Origin: a virus
Lineage: Duplodnaviria > Heunggongvirae > Uroviricota > Caudoviricetes
Virus record (IMG/VR): IMGVR_UViG_2698536647_000003
Span: 1 to 8,752 of that record
Strand: one strand, 5' to 3'
DNA length: 8,752 bases
Under the pieces are notes generated by a model. It worked only from the letters and a program-made list of their open reading frames with translations. It was not told the DNA's origin and made no database searches. A program made the translations under genes and the position numbers. Shown here piece after piece: positions 1 to 8,566 of the stretch. Numbering within the stretch: position 1 is the stretch's first letter; the number at the start of each line of letters is the position of its first letter.

Positions 1-804
1 CTGCGCCCACGGCACTGATGATTTTGGTGTTTGAGGGTCAGTGGTTGTTAGAAAACGGCTGAATACCGCATTACCGTAAGTAATCCACAGCTGCGCAATT
101 CGATGCCCGGTGTAGGAACTCTGAAACCCACAGCCATACGAAGGAGCCCACAGAGTATTGCCATCAGCATCACTGATGAAGGATGAACTGGCATCTGTGG
201 GCTTATTTTGGAGAACAGCACCAACCCCAAAAGCTCCCACCTGCATAACATTCCCTGCCGCAGTTCCGACATCCTTTGTCGCACTACTTCCTAAACCGAG
301 GTTTGTGCGAACGTCTGCTGCGTTCGTTGCCCCGGTCCCGCCCTGCGCAATAGAAAGCGCAGTAGTGAGTCCTTTCAGCTCCGTGATATCGCTGTTTGCC
401 CCCTTTCTGGCAAGTGCACCAATGCCCGGAATATTCACGGAAGCTCCGTTGATGGTAACGGTGATAGTTTGGTTTGCTGAGGTGGTGGCGAACGTCTCCC
501 ATGCGCCGATATTCTCGTCATACTCTTTGATGAGCTGAGACATGGCCTGCGCCAGGCCGTCGACTGAGATATTGTCTGACACAAGGATTCCATACTTCTG
601 GCCGCTCAGCGCCGGGGAAGCAACTGGCGTAACCGTCAAAGACGTGGCGCTGTTCACGGATGAAATCTGGAACAGCTGCACCGGGTTAGACATCACGATA
701 ATTGTCTGCCCAGCGCGAACCTGGCTGGCGGGAGCTGTCCAGTTTGTGCCGGAGCCGGTTGCGGTATTTCCGTTAATAGAGATAGTTCCTGTGCTATAAA
801 TCAT
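1..804 (-). CDS. Tail fibre protein, N-terminal 268 codons (partial; 3' end lies beyond the window start)
   Basis: Hand translation of the minus strand from ATG 804..802 is open for 268 codons to position 1 (MIYSTGTISINGNTATGSGTNW...), which explains why this frame is absent from the ATG-to-stop ORF track. TAGGAG sits 5 nt upstream of the ATG (811..816 on the minus strand). The translation contains LSIAQGGTGATNAADVRTNLGLG, a motif I recognise as recurrent in phage tail fibres. Position is immediately distal to J. Confidence 0.7.
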   Translation of the reverse strand, partial: MIYSTGTISINGNTATGSGTNWTAPASQVRAGQTIIVMSNPVQLFQISSVNSATSLTVTPVASPALSGQKYGILVSDNISVDGLAQAMSQLIKEYDENIGAWETFATTSANQTITVTINGASVNIPGIGALARKGANSDITELKGLTTALSIAQGGTGATNAADVRTNLGLGSSATKDVGTAAGNVMQVGAFGVGAVLQNKPTDASSSFISDADGNTLWAPSYGCGFQSSYTGHRIAQLWITYGNAVFSRFLTTTDPQTPKSSVPWAQ

Positions 805-1309: not shown

Positions 1310-1543
1310 ATGAAACTCGCTCTAATTATGCTGCCATTATGTCTGTCCCTCACTGCATGTGGTAATGGTTTAAATACCGGTAAACCAAATTCCGGTGTCA
1401 TTCCAAAACCTTTGGATCGAGATGGTAACGGTTCTTTAATTTATGATACCGAAAACCTTCCAATGACGGGGCAGTGGTGTCACGAGATTGATCACGAATA
1501 CCGACGAATCGGTAGCCCTTCTAACTGTGTTATTGACTACTAA
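1310..1543 (+). CDS. Small predicted outer-membrane lipoprotein (77 aa), moron convergent with J
   Basis: ORF-track ORF with AAGGAG at 1299..1304, 5 nt before the ATG. N-terminus MKLALIMLPLCLSLTAC has a charged n-region, hydrophobic core and lipobox L-T-A-C (Gly at +2). AT-rich relative to flanking tail genes. A perfect hairpin terminator begins 2 nt after the stop. Confidence 0.6.
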   Translation: MKLALIMLPLCLSLTACGNGLNTGKPNSGVIPKPLDRDGNGSLIYDTENLPMTGQWCHEIDHEYRRIGSPSNCVIDY

Positions 1544-1574: not shown

Positions 1575-4500
1575 TTAACCTGTGAATGAACCAGATCCGT
1601 GTGATACTATGACAGTAGGCGAATAAATGGACGCGCCCCTGTTATTTTGAGCGGACACTTTAATACGCACTGTTACGTTTGGACCTGTTACAACCGCAGA
1701 ATGCATGATAAGTCTCTCCATGTCTTGTACGGATGAACCACTCTCATTGCCGTTAATATTGATTAGTCCTGCACCATTACCTTTAACGTTTGCTATAACA
1801 CAGACGTGTCTTGCGTGCCCAGAACTGGATGAATCCGTATAAGTTATTACCTTTTCTAAAAGGCCGTCACTAGACCGACTAACGTCAGTTCCGGTGTGCA
1901 TATTTGCAATGTCCCCGATAAAACTTTGGGCTTCCACAGTCCCTTTGAATTTACCGCTTGTTGCTTGTATCTCACCAGTAAATCTACCGCCACTAGCATA
2001 TACTACACCTCTGACGGTCACATTGTTGAATTCAGCATCTCCAGCTTTATTCAACTTCCAACCAGCAGAACCAGCTGCATAGTTGTTGGACTGGATATAG
2101 TTACCGATTTTTGCGTTCTCAATGGTGCCGTCCTGGATGAAGCTGGCCCGGATGAATGTCTGTCCATTCTGGATCACAAACGGCAAAGCCACGCTATTTC
2201 CGGCTGCCGTGGTGACGGCGAAGCGATCAGCCAGGAAGATAACCTGCGACTGCATGCCGGATGGCGTATTCTCCACGCCGATACCCATCCCCGCGGCGTA
2301 ATACTGCCCGTTGCTGGAGACACCAACTTTGATGTTGTACATCGCGCTGAGGTCGCCGTTTACGTTCGCTATAGCCTGAGCGTTGGTTGTGATGGCTGAG
2401 GTATGCCCGTTCACCGTCGCCGTGATGCTGTTTACCTGCGTGGCCATAGCCTGCTGGTAATCGGAGAACGTCTGGTTCAGGCTGTTGATGGATGCCTTGT
2501 TGCCGTTAACGTCCGTCTGCAGGCTCAGCAGCGAGCGCGCCGTTGCCTCCCTGTCGTTGACAATCACCTCATCAATACGGTCCAGATTCGCGCTGTTGCC
2601 GGCGACCGATGCAGAAAGGGTTTTACGCGTGGCCACCTGAGCGAGGTTGGCCTGGATTATCGCAATTGCAGAGTTCTTCACCCCGCCCGTCATGCCGTCC
2701 ATAGAAACGCTGATGTTGTCGATTCGCTGGCCCAGGGCGGTATCAGCCGTCGCAACGGTCTGCTCAAGCTGACTGAGTGAAGACGAAACATTCCCGACCG
2801 TGCTGGAAAGCTCATTAACGCTGGTCTGAACCTTCCCTACGTCCTGGGCATTTTTGGCGATATCTTTCGCTTGCTGCTCCAGTTCGTCGTTAGCCTGTTT
2901 GATATCGTTAGCCATGCCAGCAATTTTTTCATTGCTGTCCACAGCGTTCTCGATCAGGTCTTTGAACGTATCGGAGCCTTTCATGTCCTCCAGGATCACA
3001 TCTGTGATGTCGGAAACATCGATGCTGGCCTGTCCTCGCACCCATTCTGTGTACCCTGATTCGTTGCCGCTGCGGTCCACCAGCTGAGCGCGGTACCAGA
3101 AAATCTGCCCAGCCTTGAGGCCCATCTGCTGATATTTGCGCTGCGGATAAGGCACATCGGCCAGCAGCATCGCATCGTCCTCGGTTCCGGTCAGGCTGTA
3201 CTGAATTTCCGTCTTCAGCGTGTCGTCGGTATTCGCCGGGAATCCCCAGTTCAGCTCGATGCCGAAAACCACATTTTCAGAAGCGATGAAGCCAACCGGC
3301 TTCGGTGGATTGCCCACTTTACCCGTCAGCGTTTTCTCTTCTGAATAGCCCCATCCGGATGAAATTTCAGCGGCGTTGATGGCACGCACGCGCACCAGGT
3401 ATCGTCCCGCATAAATGCCCGGAACATCGAACGATGTGGTGGAGCTGCGCGGCACGTTAACCCAGTTCCCGTCGTTGCGGCGCCATTGTGCTTCATAGGC
3501 GATAGCGTTCTGCGCCTGGTACCAGCTCACGCGCATTGTTTCGACGCTGATATTTTGCTGAACCACGGAAAACGAGCTGATCACGATATTCGCAGGCGGC
3601 GACTGGTTGCCCGGCGGGATCACGCTCACCGGCCGTTGGTCAATGATGGCTCCGGTATCGATACGGGCATATTTATCCGGGTCGTGCCATGCGCCGGTAA
3701 TCGAGAAAGTGCCATCATTGTTATCGGAAACGCTGACAACTCGATACTGCTGCGCGTAGAGCTCGTCAGATTCAACCACCCAAACAGCTTCGGCCTGTGG
3801 CGTCTCACTGTATGCCGTGGTGACTGTGACTGATTCCCCGTTCACGGCCTGAATGGTCCTGCTCTGCGACGCTCCGGAGGGAAGGTTGAGAATAAGGCGA
3901 TCACCTGGTGCTGCATCAGCTACGCGGTCAAGTTTGATAACGCGACCGTTAACGGCGCTGATGCGGCCGCCCATAACCTTTCCGGAAAGCAGCTCGTCTG
4001 CCACGGCGATGATGTAGCCAGGCTGCGGAATGTTTCCGTCCAGCCCGACATCAAACGAAACAACGCGATCCTTGTTGTTGGTGAGAATGCCCCAGCGCCC
4101 CTTTCGGTTCGCTTCTGACTGCCTGGTGCAGCCGATGGCTGTCATTTCCAGCTGATTGAAGCCGTATCGCGCTACCAGCGCCTGCTCAAATACCGGCTCC
4201 ATCGCGTCGGCATAAGCGTTACCCGGGTCTGACCATGAAACCAGCGCTGTGGTGTAGCGGGTTTTCGTGGTGCTGCTTGAATAGGTGAAGCGACCGCCAA
4301 CAACGTTGGCGCGCGTGTAGCTGTAATCAACATCTCGGGGCATATCGGCCAGAGCAACGATCTGATCGCCTCCCCAGTACGTCATGCCACGGAATATGGC
4401 CGCAAAATCACGCAGGACTGTATAAGCGTCGTTTCGGTCCTGGATGTACACGTTGCAGGTATAACGCGGTTCGGTACCGTTGCCCCCTTTGCCGTCTGGT

Positions 4501-5465
4501 ACCATCTGATCACAATACTGGGCAACCTGATAAAGCGTCCATTTATCAATATTCGCAGCGGTCAAACGGTGCCCGAGGCCGAACCGGTCAGAAACAACCA
4601 GATCGTAAAAAATCCACGCAGGGTTATCCGTCCATGCCCACTTAAACGCACCGGTCCATGTACCGCTATAAGTGCGGGTTTCAGGGTCGTAGGTATCTGG
4701 AACGCGGATAACACGGCCGCGGGGCTCGCAGGAGATCTGCGGGATAGAGCCGTTAAACTGACTTGAATCGAATTCGATGTAGAGTAGCGCTGTGTTTGGA
4801 TATCGTAACTTGGCGTCAATCACCTCGGTGAAGCTCTGCAGCGTCATCGTGTCGCCGATCTTCGCGCTGTTGGCATCAGAGGTAATCTTACGCAGACGTA
4901 TTGTCCAGGTGCTGCCAGCTTGCGGTAAATCGATACGGTGGCTGCGCTCATAACCAGACGTCGTTTTGCCGGTCACGCTGGTATTGAGTACCGTCTGCCA
5001 TGTGCCGCCGTCCGTCTGCAGGTCAATCGCATAATTGACCGAGTAACCCACCAGATCTCCGTCGTCTTCCTGTTTGAAAAGCGAGGGCCATTTCAGACGC
5101 AGACGAACTGCTGAAAGCTGCGTATTGGTAAACGTGCGCGTCCAGGCTGTAGCGCTTGATACCTCAGTTCCCACGCTGATTTCGTTTTCGGTACCGGGAA
5201 TACCCTGAATATATTTTTGAGCCTGCGTCCCCGCGCGAAACTCCCACGTCACGCCGCTGAAGTTTTGGGAACCGTCGGCATTCTCCAGCGCCGTTCCGTC
5301 CAGGTAGATATCTTTGCCGGTTAGCTGCCCTGCGAACTCCCCTTCGCCAAGCGCAACGAGGATTTTTGCCTTCGCTACAGATTGCAGATCATCAGGCTGT
5401 TCGGTAGGAGTTCGTGAACTGGATTTGCCGCCTTTGCGCCCCTTTAATACTTTCTCTGTAGCCAT
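1575..5465 (-). CDS. J: Host specificity protein J (central tail fibre / tail tip), 1296 aa
   Basis: Single 3891-nt ORF. The N-terminal region (KGGKSSSRTPTEQPDDLQS...) and the segment YYAAGMGIGVENTPSGMQSQVIFLADRFAV... resemble lambda gpJ as I recall it. It sits after M-L-K-I in lambda order. Start ATG 5465 has only a weak GGA-type Shine-Dalgarno. Confidence 0.93.
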   Translation of the reverse strand: MATEKVLKGRKGGKSSSRTPTEQPDDLQSVAKAKILVALGEGEFAGQLTGKDIYLDGTALENADGSQNFSGVTWEFRAGTQAQKYIQGIPGTENEISVGTEVSSATAWTRTFTNTQLSAVRLRLKWPSLFKQEDDGDLVGYSVNYAIDLQTDGGTWQTVLNTSVTGKTTSGYERSHRIDLPQAGSTWTIRLRKITSDANSAKIGDTMTLQSFTEVIDAKLRYPNTALLYIEFDSSQFNGSIPQISCEPRGRVIRVPDTYDPETRTYSGTWTGAFKWAWTDNPAWIFYDLVVSDRFGLGHRLTAANIDKWTLYQVAQYCDQMVPDGKGGNGTEPRYTCNVYIQDRNDAYTVLRDFAAIFRGMTYWGGDQIVALADMPRDVDYSYTRANVVGGRFTYSSSTTKTRYTTALVSWSDPGNAYADAMEPVFEQALVARYGFNQLEMTAIGCTRQSEANRKGRWGILTNNKDRVVSFDVGLDGNIPQPGYIIAVADELLSGKVMGGRISAVNGRVIKLDRVADAAPGDRLILNLPSGASQSRTIQAVNGESVTVTTAYSETPQAEAVWVVESDELYAQQYRVVSVSDNNDGTFSITGAWHDPDKYARIDTGAIIDQRPVSVIPPGNQSPPANIVISSFSVVQQNISVETMRVSWYQAQNAIAYEAQWRRNDGNWVNVPRSSTTSFDVPGIYAGRYLVRVRAINAAEISSGWGYSEEKTLTGKVGNPPKPVGFIASENVVFGIELNWGFPANTDDTLKTEIQYSLTGTEDDAMLLADVPYPQRKYQQMGLKAGQIFWYRAQLVDRSGNESGYTEWVRGQASIDVSDITDVILEDMKGSDTFKDLIENAVDSNEKIAGMANDIKQANDELEQQAKDIAKNAQDVGKVQTSVNELSSTVGNVSSSLSQLEQTVATADTALGQRIDNISVSMDGMTGGVKNSAIAIIQANLAQVATRKTLSASVAGNSANLDRIDEVIVNDREATARSLLSLQTDVNGNKASINSLNQTFSDYQQAMATQVNSITATVNGHTSAITTNAQAIANVNGDLSAMYNIKVGVSSNGQYYAAGMGIGVENTPSGMQSQVIFLADRFAVTTAAGNSVALPFVIQNGQTFIRASFIQDGTIENAKIGNYIQSNNYAAGSAGWKLNKAGDAEFNNVTVRGVVYASGGRFTGEIQATSGKFKGTVEAQSFIGDIANMHTGTDVSRSSDGLLEKVITYTDSSSSGHARHVCVIANVKGNGAGLININGNESGSSVQDMERLIMHSAVVTGPNVTVRIKVSAQNNRGASIYSPTVIVSHGSGSFTG

Positions 5466-5476
5466 ATCGCGTCCAT

Positions 5477-5499
5477 AAAAAAAGCCACCCGAAGGCGGC
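5477..5499 (-). terminator. Intrinsic terminator on the minus strand, ending 11 nt upstream of the J start codon
   Basis: Minus-strand RNA reads GCCGCC-UUCG-GGUGGC (6-bp stem with one G.U, UUCG tetraloop) followed by seven U (plus 5477..5483 is A7). Confidence 0.6.
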
Positions 5500-5631
5500 T
5501 ACTGTTTAAATATCAGGCTGTTGGTAACAGGAATCCCTGGTTAATGTGTAAGCTCAGCCCGCCAGTGGTAGGCCTCTGGCGTTAACTGACCGAGGGATGG
5601 CTGAAGTACCCGGTTAAAATGGAGTAATAAG

Positions 5632-5847
5632 ATGATCGAAGAAAAGTTCGTGGATTTTAGATTTACTCTTGACGAAAATATTCCTAGAGAAATCGCTTTA
5701 GAAATTGTGGCTCTAAGACAAGTTACAATGGTATTAACAGCAGCATTGCCAGTAGATACAAGGCAACAAGTTATTGAAATCCTATCAAAGACAAACTCAC
5801 CACAAATTCAAGACATCGTCAAAAATATGAAGCTTATTGACGCCTAA
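5632..5847 (+). CDS. Hypothetical 71-aa protein in the I-J insertion (plus strand)
   Basis: ORF-track ORF with GGAG at 5621..5624, 7 nt before the ATG. AT-rich. Its 3' end overlaps the 3' end of the minus-strand 49-aa ORF by about 50 nt, so at most one of the two may be real. No recognisable motif. Confidence 0.35.
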   Translation: MIEEKFVDFRFTLDENIPREIALEIVALRQVTMVLTAALPVDTRQQVIEILSKTNSPQIQDIVKNMKLIDA

Positions 5848-5946
5848 TGTCATTGAAGCATCGTACTCTACGGTCTCATGCGGGACCGTTTCATTAACTT
5901 CAGATGTTTCATTTTCAGTTTTTTCTACTCGTGACTCAAAAGACAT
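5797..5946 (-). CDS. Hypothetical small acidic protein (49 aa) immediately downstream of I
   Basis: Hand translation: MSFESRVEKTENETSEVNETVPHETVEYDASMTLGVNKLHIFDDVLNLW (11 Asp/Glu against 3 Arg/Lys). AAGGAG at 5958..5953 sits 6 nt before ATG 5946 and 8 nt after the I stop. Below the ORF track's apparent length cut-off. Confidence 0.35.
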   Translation of the reverse strand: MSFESRVEKTENETSEVNETVPHETVEYDASMTLGVNKLHIFDDVLNLW

Positions 5947-5966
5947 ACACATCTCCTTAACTTAGC

Positions 5967-6554
5967 TTACTGCTGATCTTCGACATATATCCCGGCAGAA
6001 ATAATCGCTCCGCCGATTCGACGCTTACCATAAAGCAGAGGCACTGGGTAGCCTTGCGCTGCAGTGTTGGTTACCCCGCCAAACGCATACGATGCACGGT
6101 TATCTGCGCTTTGTTTGCTGGCCAGCCCTGTAGCCTGAGGGGATAACATCTGAACTACCCCCCCCAGCGTTATGGACGCACCAGCAGCAAACATCATATT
6201 GCTGGCAGCTATACTCAGACCTGGCATCCAGATCGATGCAATCACTAATACTGCGCCCAGGATAGTTTGAATCAAACCGGCTTTTTTACTCCCGATGATT
6301 ACCGGAACAATGCGAATAACCTCGCCGGTAATCGGGAAGCCAAGGTCATCCACACCGATGTTTTTTTTACCCTTAAACACGGAGTATGTGAGCCCACGGC
6401 GTTGGCTGGAAATCATAAACTGCTCAAATCCAGGAATGGTTTTTGCGAGTGCAACGCCTGCTTCGCTTACGCGGGATATCAGACGGTAGTGAACTTTGCC
6501 AAACGTTTTTCCAAGAACACTGCCTAATTCAATTCGACTCATGACCTCTTGCAT
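5967..6554 (-). CDS. I: Tail assembly protein I (ubiquitin-like N-terminal domain, hydrophobic C-terminal region)
   Basis: Resembles lambda gpI as I recall it (e.g. ...GYPVPLLYG... near the C-terminus, Gly/Ala-rich hydrophobic stretch). I trimmed the ORF-track start (6641) to ATG 6554, which follows a GGGGGGA run by 4 nt and lies downstream of the 6570..6591 terminator. An in-frame ATG at 6542 is an alternative. Confidence 0.85.
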   Translation of the reverse strand: MQEVMSRIELGSVLGKTFGKVHYRLISRVSEAGVALAKTIPGFEQFMISSQRRGLTYSVFKGKKNIGVDDLGFPITGEVIRIVPVIIGSKKAGLIQTILGAVLVIASIWMPGLSIAASNMMFAAGASITLGGVVQMLSPQATGLASKQSADNRASYAFGGVTNTAAQGYPVPLLYGKRRIGGAIISAGIYVEDQQ

Positions 6555-6569
6555 ATAATCCCCCCACGT

Positions 6570-6591
6570 AAAAAAACCGCCGAAGCGGTTT
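6570..6591 (-). terminator. Intrinsic terminator on the minus strand after the K-I lipoprotein gene
   Basis: Minus-strand RNA reads AAACCGC-UUCG-GCGGUUU followed by a U-run (plus 6570..6576 is A7). Lies between the lipoprotein stop (6616) and the I start (6554). Confidence 0.65.
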
Positions 6592-6615
6592 AATTTGGTT
6601 GATTTATTTAGGTGT

Positions 6616-7011
6616 TTATTTATTAAAATGTTTCTTTTCAATGCTCATTGCTTGATTAAAGAAATTTGTAGCATTAATTACCGCCCTTTCACAATCCTTC
6701 TGCCCATAATGTCGATGGCATTGGAATTCAGCATTTATTGCCGTATCGCCGGACTGTTTAACCTTAGATGCCCGTCCTGCAAGTTGCCTTGTATCAATAG
6801 GTGGGAATGTTGTTATAAATGTATCGTTAGCTGATTCTACTCTCATTTTTGTTGCAAACTCCAAATGCTGAGGAACCTTCGACCAAAGATAACTACATTC
6901 AGCCTCTGATGAACATGTGACAGGCTTAGTATCTAATACCGGCATTGGCCTATTATCAGCACATCCAGCGGTGGCAAGTACCACAAGACCAGAGAACAAT
7001 ATTTTTTTCAC
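6616..7011 (-). CDS. Cys-rich predicted outer-membrane lipoprotein (131 aa), moron between K and I
   Basis: ORF-track ORF starting at GTG 7011..7009 (no in-frame ATG nearby), with GGGAAG 7 nt upstream. N-terminus MKKILFSGLVVLATAGC fits a lipoprotein signal with Cys+1 and Ala at +2. The mature part has 4 further Cys. AT-rich; own terminator downstream. No homolog recognised. Confidence 0.6.
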   Translation of the reverse strand: MKKILFSGLVVLATAGCADNRPMPVLDTKPVTCSSEAECSYLWSKVPQHLEFATKMRVESANDTFITTFPPIDTRQLAGRASKVKQSGDTAINAEFQCHRHYGQKDCERAVINATNFFNQAMSIEKKHFNK

Positions 7012-7098
7012 AATTAAGCTTCCCTTTCATTGAAAATATCAGAGGAATACTAACATGAAGTTATGGAGTGAGTAATTAACAACTTAACCACTATAGAA

Positions 7099-7809
7099 TT
7101 AACAAAATACTTTGTACCGAAGTACTTTCATTGTTCTTTCCTGCCAGTAGCCACCATATGGCACGCGCTGGCTAAGATGACCGTACAAATGATGCAGTAG
7201 CATATTGCCCTCAAGCAGGATCCCCGCGTGATTCCACTTATCGGCCTGGACCTGCATGATGATGAGGTCCCCTTCCTGAGGCGGGCCATCAAACTCCCTG
7301 AATCCGCACTCGTACCAGCACTCCTGATAGAAATTGTCCGGGTAGTCGTTTTCCCACCAGGGATAATCCACCCGGTAATCGTGGAGCTCGATACCGTGGG
7401 TCTGCCGGAAATAGCTCATTACCAGACCCCAGCAATCGAAGTGGCCAAGCACGAACGGACGCTCCAGCAATGGCAGCTCCCCGCGTGGCTGAATGGTACG
7501 TAAATCCCCCTCTGGCCAGCTCACAATATGCCAGGGCAGCAGCGTTGCATCACACTGTGCCTTATCCAGCTCGCTGGCCTGCGTCGTCGCATCAGGATGG
7601 CTGTGAACAATGGCCACCACCGTCCCCCAGTCTTCTGCCGCTGCGTAATCTTCGGGGGACAGGTGAAAATGTTCAGTCGGCTCTGCTGCGAGATTACGAC
7701 AGGGAAAATAGCGCTCAACCCGGCTTTTCTGTGCCACCACGCCGCAGCACTCGCGCGGATATTCCGCTGCAGCGTGTGCCATGATGGCATCAATGGTTTT
7801 CTGGCGCAT
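7099..7809 (-). CDS. K: Tail assembly / tail tip protein K (JAMM/MPN metalloprotease-like N-domain plus NlpC/P60-like C-domain)
   Basis: JAMM motif visible: E in PRECCGVV, then HSHPDATTQASELD, which fits H-x-H-x7-S-x2-D. NlpC/P60-like Cys in GHFDCWGLV and His in WNHAGILL. Start set at ATG 7809 (protein MRQKTIDAIM...) with AGGAG 5 nt upstream; the L stop TGA (7813..7811) is 1 nt before it. The ORF-track start at 7845 is probably an upstream non-ATG artefact. Confidence 0.9.
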   Translation of the reverse strand: MRQKTIDAIMAHAAAEYPRECCGVVAQKSRVERYFPCRNLAAEPTEHFHLSPEDYAAAEDWGTVVAIVHSHPDATTQASELDKAQCDATLLPWHIVSWPEGDLRTIQPRGELPLLERPFVLGHFDCWGLVMSYFRQTHGIELHDYRVDYPWWENDYPDNFYQECWYECGFREFDGPPQEGDLIIMQVQADKWNHAGILLEGNMLLHHLYGHLSQRVPYGGYWQERTMKVLRYKVFC

Positions 7810-7810
7810 A

Positions 7811-8566
7811 TCAACTCCTGATAAGAGATGTACCGGGGAAACCACCGAACGGCAGCTCGTTGCTGTATCCGTGCCGGAGCTTGCAGGCCGTCAGCGTGCC
7901 GTTGCATACATCCAGCGAGGGATCGTCAACCGGATTATTGTTTTTGTCGAAATAGCGCGTTCCGGCATAGTCGCAGCCGTCGCCGGTACGATATTTATTC
8001 CGGATGCACCAGGTACACAGGGAATGAAGCTGTCGCGTCGGGATCATTTGCCCCTGCAGGTCCATCGGGCTGGATAGTGTGAACTCAACAACTTCATTGG
8101 TTTCACTGCTCTTTGCATCGATGTAGAAAACCTTCAGCTTCTCCTGGGTCGGATCGGCTGTCGGATTGCCTCCGGTGAAGTTTCTCGCATCAAGATACTT
8201 ACCAAGGGTGTCATGTATCGTCACCTTCGCCTGCAGCATATCGTCGTAAGCCAGGCAAAGCGCGGTGATCGAACTGTCGAGGTTAGCAACCGAAAGTTTT
8301 GGCTGGGCACTACTTCCCGAGGTTGAAGCTTCGATCCCATCAATCTGGCATGGCCACGCTTTATACTCCTCACCCTGCCACCAGATAGATTTTGCTGGCA
8401 GTTTATTTTCATCACCGCCAGCAGCCTCAATCTCTTCCGGGGTATGCGCGATGTTATGTGCGTGGAAGCGGAGTACATCTGACATACCGAACGCTGTGCC
8501 ATCGACAGAAAAAAGCCGGACTTCATTGCCCGGCTCGAGTTTTTGATAATCAGCATTAAGACTCAT
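7811..8566 (-). CDS. L: Tail tip protein L (251 aa)
   Basis: Position between M and K. C-terminal Cys cluster (LCTWCIRNKYRTGDGCDYAG ... CNGTLTACKLRHG) resembles the conserved Cys pattern of lambda gpL as I recall it. The ATG at 8566..8564 overlaps the M stop in an ATGA arrangement. Confidence 0.9.
   Translation of the reverse strand: MSLNADYQKLEPGNEVRLFSVDGTAFGMSDVLRFHAHNIAHTPEEIEAAGGDENKLPAKSIWWQGEEYKAWPCQIDGIEASTSGSSAQPKLSVANLDSSITALCLAYDDMLQAKVTIHDTLGKYLDARNFTGGNPTADPTQEKLKVFYIDAKSSETNEVVEFTLSSPMDLQGQMIPTRQLHSLCTWCIRNKYRTGDGCDYAGTRYFDKNNNPVDDPSLDVCNGTLTACKLRHGYSNELPFGGFPGTSLIRS

Follow-up and report, generated by a model that had tools for sequence, protein, structure and literature searches.

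The question raised by this locus is what a gene for a predicted lipoprotein does between two tail genes, K and I, of a prophage: whether its product acts on incoming phages, on the host envelope, or within the virion. The gene, here called ORF131, lies in a window (the whole stretch of DNA analyzed) of 8,752 nucleotides. This window covers the tail tip of a prophage of the HK97/HK022 type, whose tail genes are all on the minus strand. K belongs to a PHROG of minor tail proteins, and its RefSeq homologue is annotated as 711 nt; the RefSeq homologue of I is 98% identical. A first-pass annotation, made from the letters alone, had proposed ORF131 as a candidate superinfection-exclusion or conversion factor. 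The features on which the present analysis is based are reported in Table 1.

Table 1. Localization of the features discussed, numbered along the window
Feature	Position	Strand	Remarks
L	7811-8566	-	tail gene
K	7099-7809	-	JAB/MPN (Prok-JAB, PF14464) + NlpC/P60 (PF00877); phrog_30
Whole inserted cassette (moron)	6557..7108	-	AT-rich leader, lipoprotein gene, terminator
AT-rich upstream region	7012..7098	-	87 nt; read from sequence
Possible extended -10 element	7041..7033	-	TGaTATTTT; read from sequence
Shine-Dalgarno sequence	7026..7019	-	AAGGGAAG; ahead of the GTG start of ORF131
ORF131 lipoprotein gene	6616-7011	-	131-aa precursor, between K and I
Signal peptide codons	6964..7011	-	residues 1-16, MKKILFSGLVVLATAG; PROSITE PS51257 rule passed
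Lipid-modified Cys17 codon (predicted)	6961..6963	-	lipid Cys shared by 57 of the 58 aligned members
Intrinsic terminator	6567..6591	-	7-bp GC-rich stem (6591..6574), tetraloop, T7
I	5967-6554	-	ATG at 6554; phrog_32 (tail assembly protein), E = 6.5e-72
Second AT-rich gap	5466-5966		between I and J; 40.7% GC
71-aa ORF in I-J gap	5632-5847	+	opposite strand; phrog_6806, unknown function
Terminator-like site	5500-5483	-	just upstream of J
J	1575-5465	-	tail-tip region
Last 146 residues of J	about 1575-2012	-	80% identical to KurtStettler J
77-aa lipoprotein gene	1310-1543	+	directly after J, opposite to J
GC-rich end of the window	1-800		precedes the AT-rich post-J region; no long complete ORF in the ORF list

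The extent of the insertion was established by comparison with a prophage of E. coli ECCRA-119, where the homologues of K and I overlap by 13 nt and nothing is inserted between them. Homology between this prophage and the window stops after the K codons ending in ...RYK, and restarts at the start region of I; because the ECCRA-119 junction is empty, the insertion, of ~550 bp, can be placed at about the positions given in Table 1. The inserted DNA also provides the last codons and the stop of K. Its GC content is 37.5%, compared to 55% for K and 50% for I, and its terminator stands directly upstream of the ribosome-binding site and ATG of I. Three features of a moron, in the sense of Juhala and Hendrix, are found: extra DNA at a conserved junction, deviant base composition and a terminator of its own. 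The ORF131 gene is an accessory cassette of an HK97/HK022-like prophage; of 5,426 complete E. coli genomes, only 2 contain this cassette. The first-pass annotation had described an AT-rich gene, with its own terminator, between two tail genes which otherwise overlap; each of these points holds, and the overlap is seen directly in the empty site.

The region upstream of ORF131, conserved in the cassettes of three other contigs (L017, L020 and L021), contains the ribosome-binding sequence and the possible -10 element listed in Table 1. A scan of 7012-7098 for a consensus sigma-70 promoter found none, and any lysogen expression of the window copy is putative.

Other parts of the window differ in composition or content from the tail genes. 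Positions 1-800, when compared to HK97, match the stf side-tail-fibre region. The gap between I and J is the slot where the 'reverse moron' genes gp22/gp23 of HK97 and gp22/srb of HK022 are located; the 71-aa ORF found there is 100% identical to WP_053263845.1, annotated in two E. coli genomes.

ORF131 is read from a GTG start, and its N-terminus, MKKILFSGLVVLATAGC, agrees with the lipoprotein signal peptide recognized at first reading. The PROSITE PS51257 rule is passed: the n-region contains two Lys, the h-region has no charged residue, and A-T-A-G is followed by C17; the G+LPP-type lipoprotein pattern is matched as well. The Thr at -3 is atypical: close and distant relatives feature L or I at this position, and the lipobox consensus of the family is L-[ASVT]-G-C. 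By sequence, ORF131 is predicted to be a bacterial lipoprotein, substrate of SPase II and Lgt. The residue at +2 is Ala, which, by the Lol rule of E. coli, would direct the protein to the outer membrane; in 57 family members this residue is never Asp, but A, V, S, G, L, N or T (Ala in 41 of the 57).

The mature protein (115 aa, ~13 kDa, pI 8.3) is composed of a 15-residue Pro-rich tether followed by a globular beta-alpha-beta4-alpha domain; a tether of 12-23 residues is found in 55 of 57 members. The four further cysteines, already counted in the first-pass annotation, are located at positions 33, 39, 98 and 107. C33, C39 and C98 are invariant in the 58 family members, and C107 is conserved in at least 90% of them. 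In the same alignment the motif C-x5-C-x3-W is essentially invariant, while the second Cys pair is spaced by a variable loop of 2-8 residues. Four conserved cysteines, with a fixed C-x5-C spacing, point to an oxidising compartment. The ratio dN/dS, calculated versus an 89%-identical homologue, is 0.075; together with the confident predicted fold described below, this value indicates a real coding gene, and ORF131 is under strong purifying selection.

Relatives were searched for at two levels. Close ones form only five clusters, from E. coli, Enterobacter and Citrobacter, in a word-indexed search of 5.8 billion proteins; the exact protein is recorded, on 125 contigs, as 'MULTISPECIES hypothetical protein [Enterobacteriaceae]'. 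A family profile, run exhaustively against 1.84 billion representatives, identified 67 proteins, nearly all of 110-180 aa, and the family alignment used here includes 58 members. One match of 4,104 aa (P0008) was discarded as a repeat-protein artefact, composed of eight partial stretches, all aligned against residues 29-63. The taxa represented also include Burkholderiales and metagenome phages. With three family members as tblastn queries, just 2 of 50,697 phage records were seen to carry the family, the E. coli lambdoid phages 689R5 and 606R7.

The Pfam search suggested by the first-pass annotation produced no match at E <= 1 for ORF131, nor any for the 58 family members. Within the same threshold, ORF131 matches no NCBIfam model and no anti-phage defence model of PADLOC-DB 2.0, and NCBIfam holds no family model for three other members scanned. 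The only library match is to phrog_16082, labelled 'unknown function', and no mention of the family was found in the literature searched by accession numbers and PHROG id. By these sequence and literature searches the family is a previously undescribed one, as the first-pass annotation had supposed.

A structure prediction followed by a fold search, also proposed at that stage, gave a confident result. The AlphaFold2 model, built on the 58-sequence alignment, features pLDDT 93.7 and pTM 0.82; strand beta1 (31-33) is followed by helix alpha1 (36-54), four strands (58-98) and helix alpha2 (104-130). Cysteines 33/39 and 98/107 would pair into disulfides, each of which, judged by position, would tie a strand to the beginning of the helix after it. 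In structure, the closest neighbours are helix-grip domains, those of BamC, a lipoprotein of the outer membrane, which is at the top of the Foldseek comparison with PDB (E = 3e-3, TM about 0.46); among the viral structures of BFVD, Foldseek had no match at E <= 0.001. When the sequences of all PDB chains were searched with a profile (E <= 10), neither BamC nor any homologue was retrieved. The matches to TrwH, beta-lactamase and carbonic anhydrase produced by this search were rejected as noise at the level of the signal peptide. As far as the model goes, the likeness of ORF131 to BamC is at the fold level only.

The junction between K and I carries different genes in related phages. In HK97 and HK022 an unrelated 74-aa cargo is present, followed at the corresponding place by a terminator of its own. 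This cargo is a YebO-family protein (PF13974, E = 1.8e-12), and a gene of the same family occupies the slot in another prophage of E. coli. Given this varied cargo, the K-I junction is a cargo hotspot, where the ORF131 gene is one of the alternatives. The YebO family includes HK97 gp15, a demonstrated superinfection-exclusion protein (PMC3594210). In the Pfam scan the YebO model, PF13974, matches gp20 of HK022 and not ORF131.

Family members belonging to tail modules are found in three slots, co-oriented with the tail genes and mostly beside the tape measure gene (TMP). The K-I slot is used in the window, in E. coli, in Citrobacter and in five viral contigs; a 66%-identical copy, along with more distant ones, is located between TMP and M; distant members occupy the slot between the tail chaperone and TMP, the one which hosts gp15 in HK97. 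In some distant phages the gene is closely packed within the late tail operon, with short intergenic gaps. A different localization is observed in five independent lineages, where the gene immediately follows that of a CI-type repressor (HTH_3 + Peptidase_S24) or shares its operon, divergent from cro and replication genes. This is the same position as that of rexAB in lambda, and it speaks, at the family level, for expression in the lysogen.

Some single contexts are described here for their neighbouring genes. In three viral contigs, L022 (9931-13152), L023 and L024, where the lipoprotein homologue itself is in the TMP-M slot, the K-I slot contains a 3.2-kb repressor/antirepressor island, coding for a repressor-like protein with HTH_3 and Peptidase_S24 domains, a Bro-N/P22_AR_C antirepressor and an ORF6N protein. 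In a phage from a Burkholderiales MAG (L031, 5001-5937), the gene of family member P0025 adjoins the tape measure gene, runs opposite to the tail genes and overlaps by 11 nt a downstream gene of the Mrr_cat restriction-endonuclease-like type, which suggests a two-gene accessory or defence islet. The gene of P0013, a distant member of 180 aa with a C-terminal extension, immediately follows a BamE-family lipoprotein gene; the context is that of a single short contig (L030, 242-1130). A 40%-identical homologue, P0006, is chromosomal, on a 4.7-Mb contig (L009, 6001-6408) with no intact prophage around it; it is flanked by PTS/MurQ-like genes and by integrase fragments, and T6SS genes (TssE, ImpA_N/VasL) are ~3 kb away. 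In phage vB_EcoS-689R5 (L001, 4645-5393) the gene is part of the early right operon, upstream of the nin/Q region, and, according to the annotation of this phage, adjoins a hok-like 'host killer' gene.

Small outer-membrane lipoproteins of phages, namely T5 Llp, Cor and lambda Bor, had been taken as models in the first-pass annotation, which saw no similarity between their sequences and ORF131. This is confirmed by family models and profile alignments, where nothing is shared beyond the signal peptide. The Cor model NF047972 recognizes Cor of HK022 at E = 4e-41 and does not match ORF131 at E <= 1; when the family profile is aligned to Cor by hhalign, the signal peptide alone aligns. Against T5 Llp (the sequence used is 100% identical to X75922) the alignment is limited to residues 1-23. 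The Bor/Iss family, PF06291, is not matched in Pfam at E <= 1, and hhalign to Bor again aligns the signal peptide alone. Homology to Cor, Llp and Bor was therefore rejected, the alignments being confined to signal peptides.

A functional analogy with these proteins was evaluated separately. The known exclusion lipoproteins are of ~6-7 kDa, contain one disulfide and are encoded beside the receptor-binding gene (PMC12685063, PMC8594841). For the family described here, lipoprotein alleles 98-100% identical are found paired with J C-termini which are 92%, 64% or ~48% identical to that of the window, or undetectable; nor does lipoprotein identity track that of the tape measure protein. Since the allele co-varies with neither the J tip nor TMP, no cognate phage partner is indicated. 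This comparison disfavours a mask for the receptor of the phage's own J, and ORF131 probably does not act on this receptor as Llp and Cor do.

A second lipoprotein gene of the window, located next to J, encodes a 77-aa protein (MKLALIMLPLCLSLTAC..., mature ~6.6 kDa, 2 Cys), 83-96% identical to the product of a gene found in the same arrangement in virulent Queuovirinae, among them CAjan, Seurat, 9g and KurtStettler. By sequence, it is neither Cor nor Llp. The last 146 residues of the window J are 80% identical to the J of KurtStettler, while the rest of the protein is 22-45% identical; KurtStettler targets LamB (PMC8594841). The J tip and the 77-aa lipoprotein look like a horizontally exchanged module, formed by a receptor-binding domain and its cognate exclusion lipoprotein. 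Being linked to J as in KurtStettler, the 77-aa lipoprotein appears a better candidate than ORF131 for receptor-cognate exclusion, and its presence makes it unlikely that ORF131 duplicates this role. The analogy drawn in the first-pass annotation is weakened on both grounds, the pairing of almost identical alleles with unrelated J C-termini and the existence of a separate J-linked lipoprotein. ORF131 is also twice the size of the known exclusion lipoproteins, and differently folded.

Of the original proposal, the general part is preserved: the contexts described fit a lysogen-expressed accessory or exclusion role, while the masking of the phage's own receptor is disfavoured and no consensus promoter accompanies the gene. 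With a confidence slightly short of even, we favour the reading of ORF131 as an envelope-level superinfection exclusion factor, probably directed to a target other than the phage's own receptor. In its favour are the lipoprotein signal, the insertion itself, the use of the K-I slot by the YebO family, to which the exclusion protein gp15 belongs, the contexts of the family, from the tail slots to the Mrr_cat pairing and the repressor operon, and the purifying selection. A horizontally mobile cassette, carried by the HK97/HK022-like prophage, would encode a lipoprotein which the lysogen would produce and which late transcription would supply in either case; we infer lysogen expression for the window copy as well. 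Its disulfide-stapled, helix-grip-like domain of 13 kDa would hang into the periplasm on a tether of ~15 residues, and would shield the cell, at the envelope level, from incoming phages. The binding target might be an outer-membrane or periplasmic component, or else the penetrating tail tip or tape-measure protein. A more specific form of this reading, in which the stapled domain acts after adsorption and independently of the receptor, on the penetrating tail tip or on a lambda-type tape measure protein, as part of an exclusion class widespread in Proteobacteria, is a rather improbable one; it would account for the association of the gene with tape measure genes and with repressor operons, and not with receptor-binding domains. 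Several observations count against exclusion: the negative scan for a consensus sigma-70 promoter in the window, the packing into late tail operons of some distant phages, which would give late and not lysogenic expression, the lack of co-variation with the J tip or TMP, and the chromosomal homologue outside any intact prophage. The moron architecture and the repressor-operon positions would fit equally well a lysogenic-conversion factor, altering host envelope physiology apart from phage exclusion, for example by Bor/Iss-like serum or complement resistance, by immunity to bacteriocins or T6SS effectors, by tolerance to envelope stress, or by modulation of BAM through the BamC-like domain. We consider conversion possible, though on the unlikely side. 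The helix-grip domains of BamC as best structural neighbours, the member located beside a BamE-family gene, the same chromosomal homologue and the lack of coupling to J or TMP alleles are in its favour; yet no sequence relationship is found to Bor, nor, in the PDB profile search, to BamC, a role in host serum is unlikely for the Burkholderiales and metagenome phages which carry the family, and the recurrent placement beside tape measure genes, along with the pairing to an Mrr nuclease, is better suited to a conflict between phages.

Known exclusion lipoproteins inactivate the receptor so that progeny virions are not lost (PMC12685063), and ORF131 could likewise be a helper of the lytic cycle, made late, like T5 Llp, to inactivate the receptor on the cell and on debris and save progeny virions, any expression in the lysogen being incidental. 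The shared orientation of gene and tail operon, seen in almost every tail-module context, the short gaps observed in distant phages and the lack of a strong promoter of its own in the window agree with such a role. It is nevertheless assigned a low probability: in five lineages the gene is in the repressor operon, active in lysogens and off during lytic growth, and in one it is inverted relative to the tail genes; the gene is uncoupled from the receptor-binding domain of J, the Llp-like position being occupied by the J-linked 77-aa lipoprotein, and hardly any sequenced phage isolates carry the family, 2 of 50,697 records in the tblastn searches. As for a structural or assembly protein of the tail, located between K and I by chance, the only element in favour is the position of the gene, inside the tail-tip block and co-oriented with it. 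Of the 58 members, 57 preserve the export signal; the functional relatives HK97, HK022 and the empty-site prophage lack the gene, and at least three tail slots are used in addition to non-tail positions. The match to a structural tail protein which, for the first-pass annotation, would have spoken against its proposal was looked for among tail PHROGs and Pfam families, and none was found. Tail assembly being cytoplasmic, an exported lipoprotein cannot contribute to it, and the gene has no fixed position in the tail module; a virion role is unlikely, and we regard a tail protein as hardly credible. The reading of ORF131 as an o-spanin was rejected on the basis of context, size and globular fold. 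Exclusion at the envelope, away from the phage's own receptor, is the preferred reading.

ORF131 represents a new protein family within a familiar category, that of prophage envelope morons. Accessory lipoproteins of prophages influence which phages may infect a lysogen, and therefore bear on phage therapy and on competition between phages. The family recurs at classic lysogen-expressed positions, in phages of both gamma- and beta-proteobacteria. Should it exclude phages, it would represent a mechanistically different envelope-level defence, and the C-x5-C-x3-W lipoprotein motif would be a marker to annotate hundreds of 'hypothetical' prophage genes; should its function be another one, it would still be a well-defined and readily testable conversion gene.

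Several known systems share part of these features. The N-terminal helix-grip domain of BamC is similar in fold, as are KA1 and START/Bet v 1-like domains; identity to BamC is only 10-17%, ORF131 is a smaller, single domain and, to our knowledge, conserved disulfides are not a feature of BamC. Lambda Bor, of the Bor/Iss serum resistance family, is also a small prophage-encoded outer-membrane lipoprotein and the product of an accessory gene, but its gene is located by the lysis genes, and only the signal peptide aligns. The exclusion lipoprotein Ltp, from Streptococcus phage TP-J34, acts on the tape measure protein, is reported to block DNA entry and not adsorption, and has a helical repeat fold. 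The mechanism is of the kind favoured here, and the likeness to ORF131 is one of description; Ltp, in contrast, is surface-exposed in a Gram-positive host. Its gene, carried by a prophage, belongs to the lysogeny module (PMC3952083).

T5 Llp, Rtp45 and the Cor proteins of phi80, N15 and HK022 are, like ORF131, phage-encoded, feature a SPase II signal, and are located in or near the tail module; a predicted outer-membrane anchor, in the inner leaflet, and a periplasmic domain containing disulfides, predicted ones in the case of ORF131, are also common to them. They are, however, of ~6-7 kDa with one disulfide (PMC12685063), compared to ~13 kDa and two Cys pairs for ORF131, which is predicted to adopt a compact alpha/beta helix-grip-like fold, and whose gene is neither adjacent to the receptor-binding gene nor co-inherited with it. 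Compared to these tiny, receptor-specific proteins, linked to the receptor gene, the ORF131 family is larger, confidently predicted to fold, and unlinked. HK97 gp15 and HK022 gp20 are similar in genomic terms: both occupy moron slots, gp20 that between K and I, and gp15 that between chaperone and TMP, also used by distant members of the ORF131 family, and every cassette is provided with its own terminator. The products differ, gp15 and gp20 being inner-membrane proteins of ~70 aa with a transmembrane helix, and ORF131 a predicted lipoprotein.
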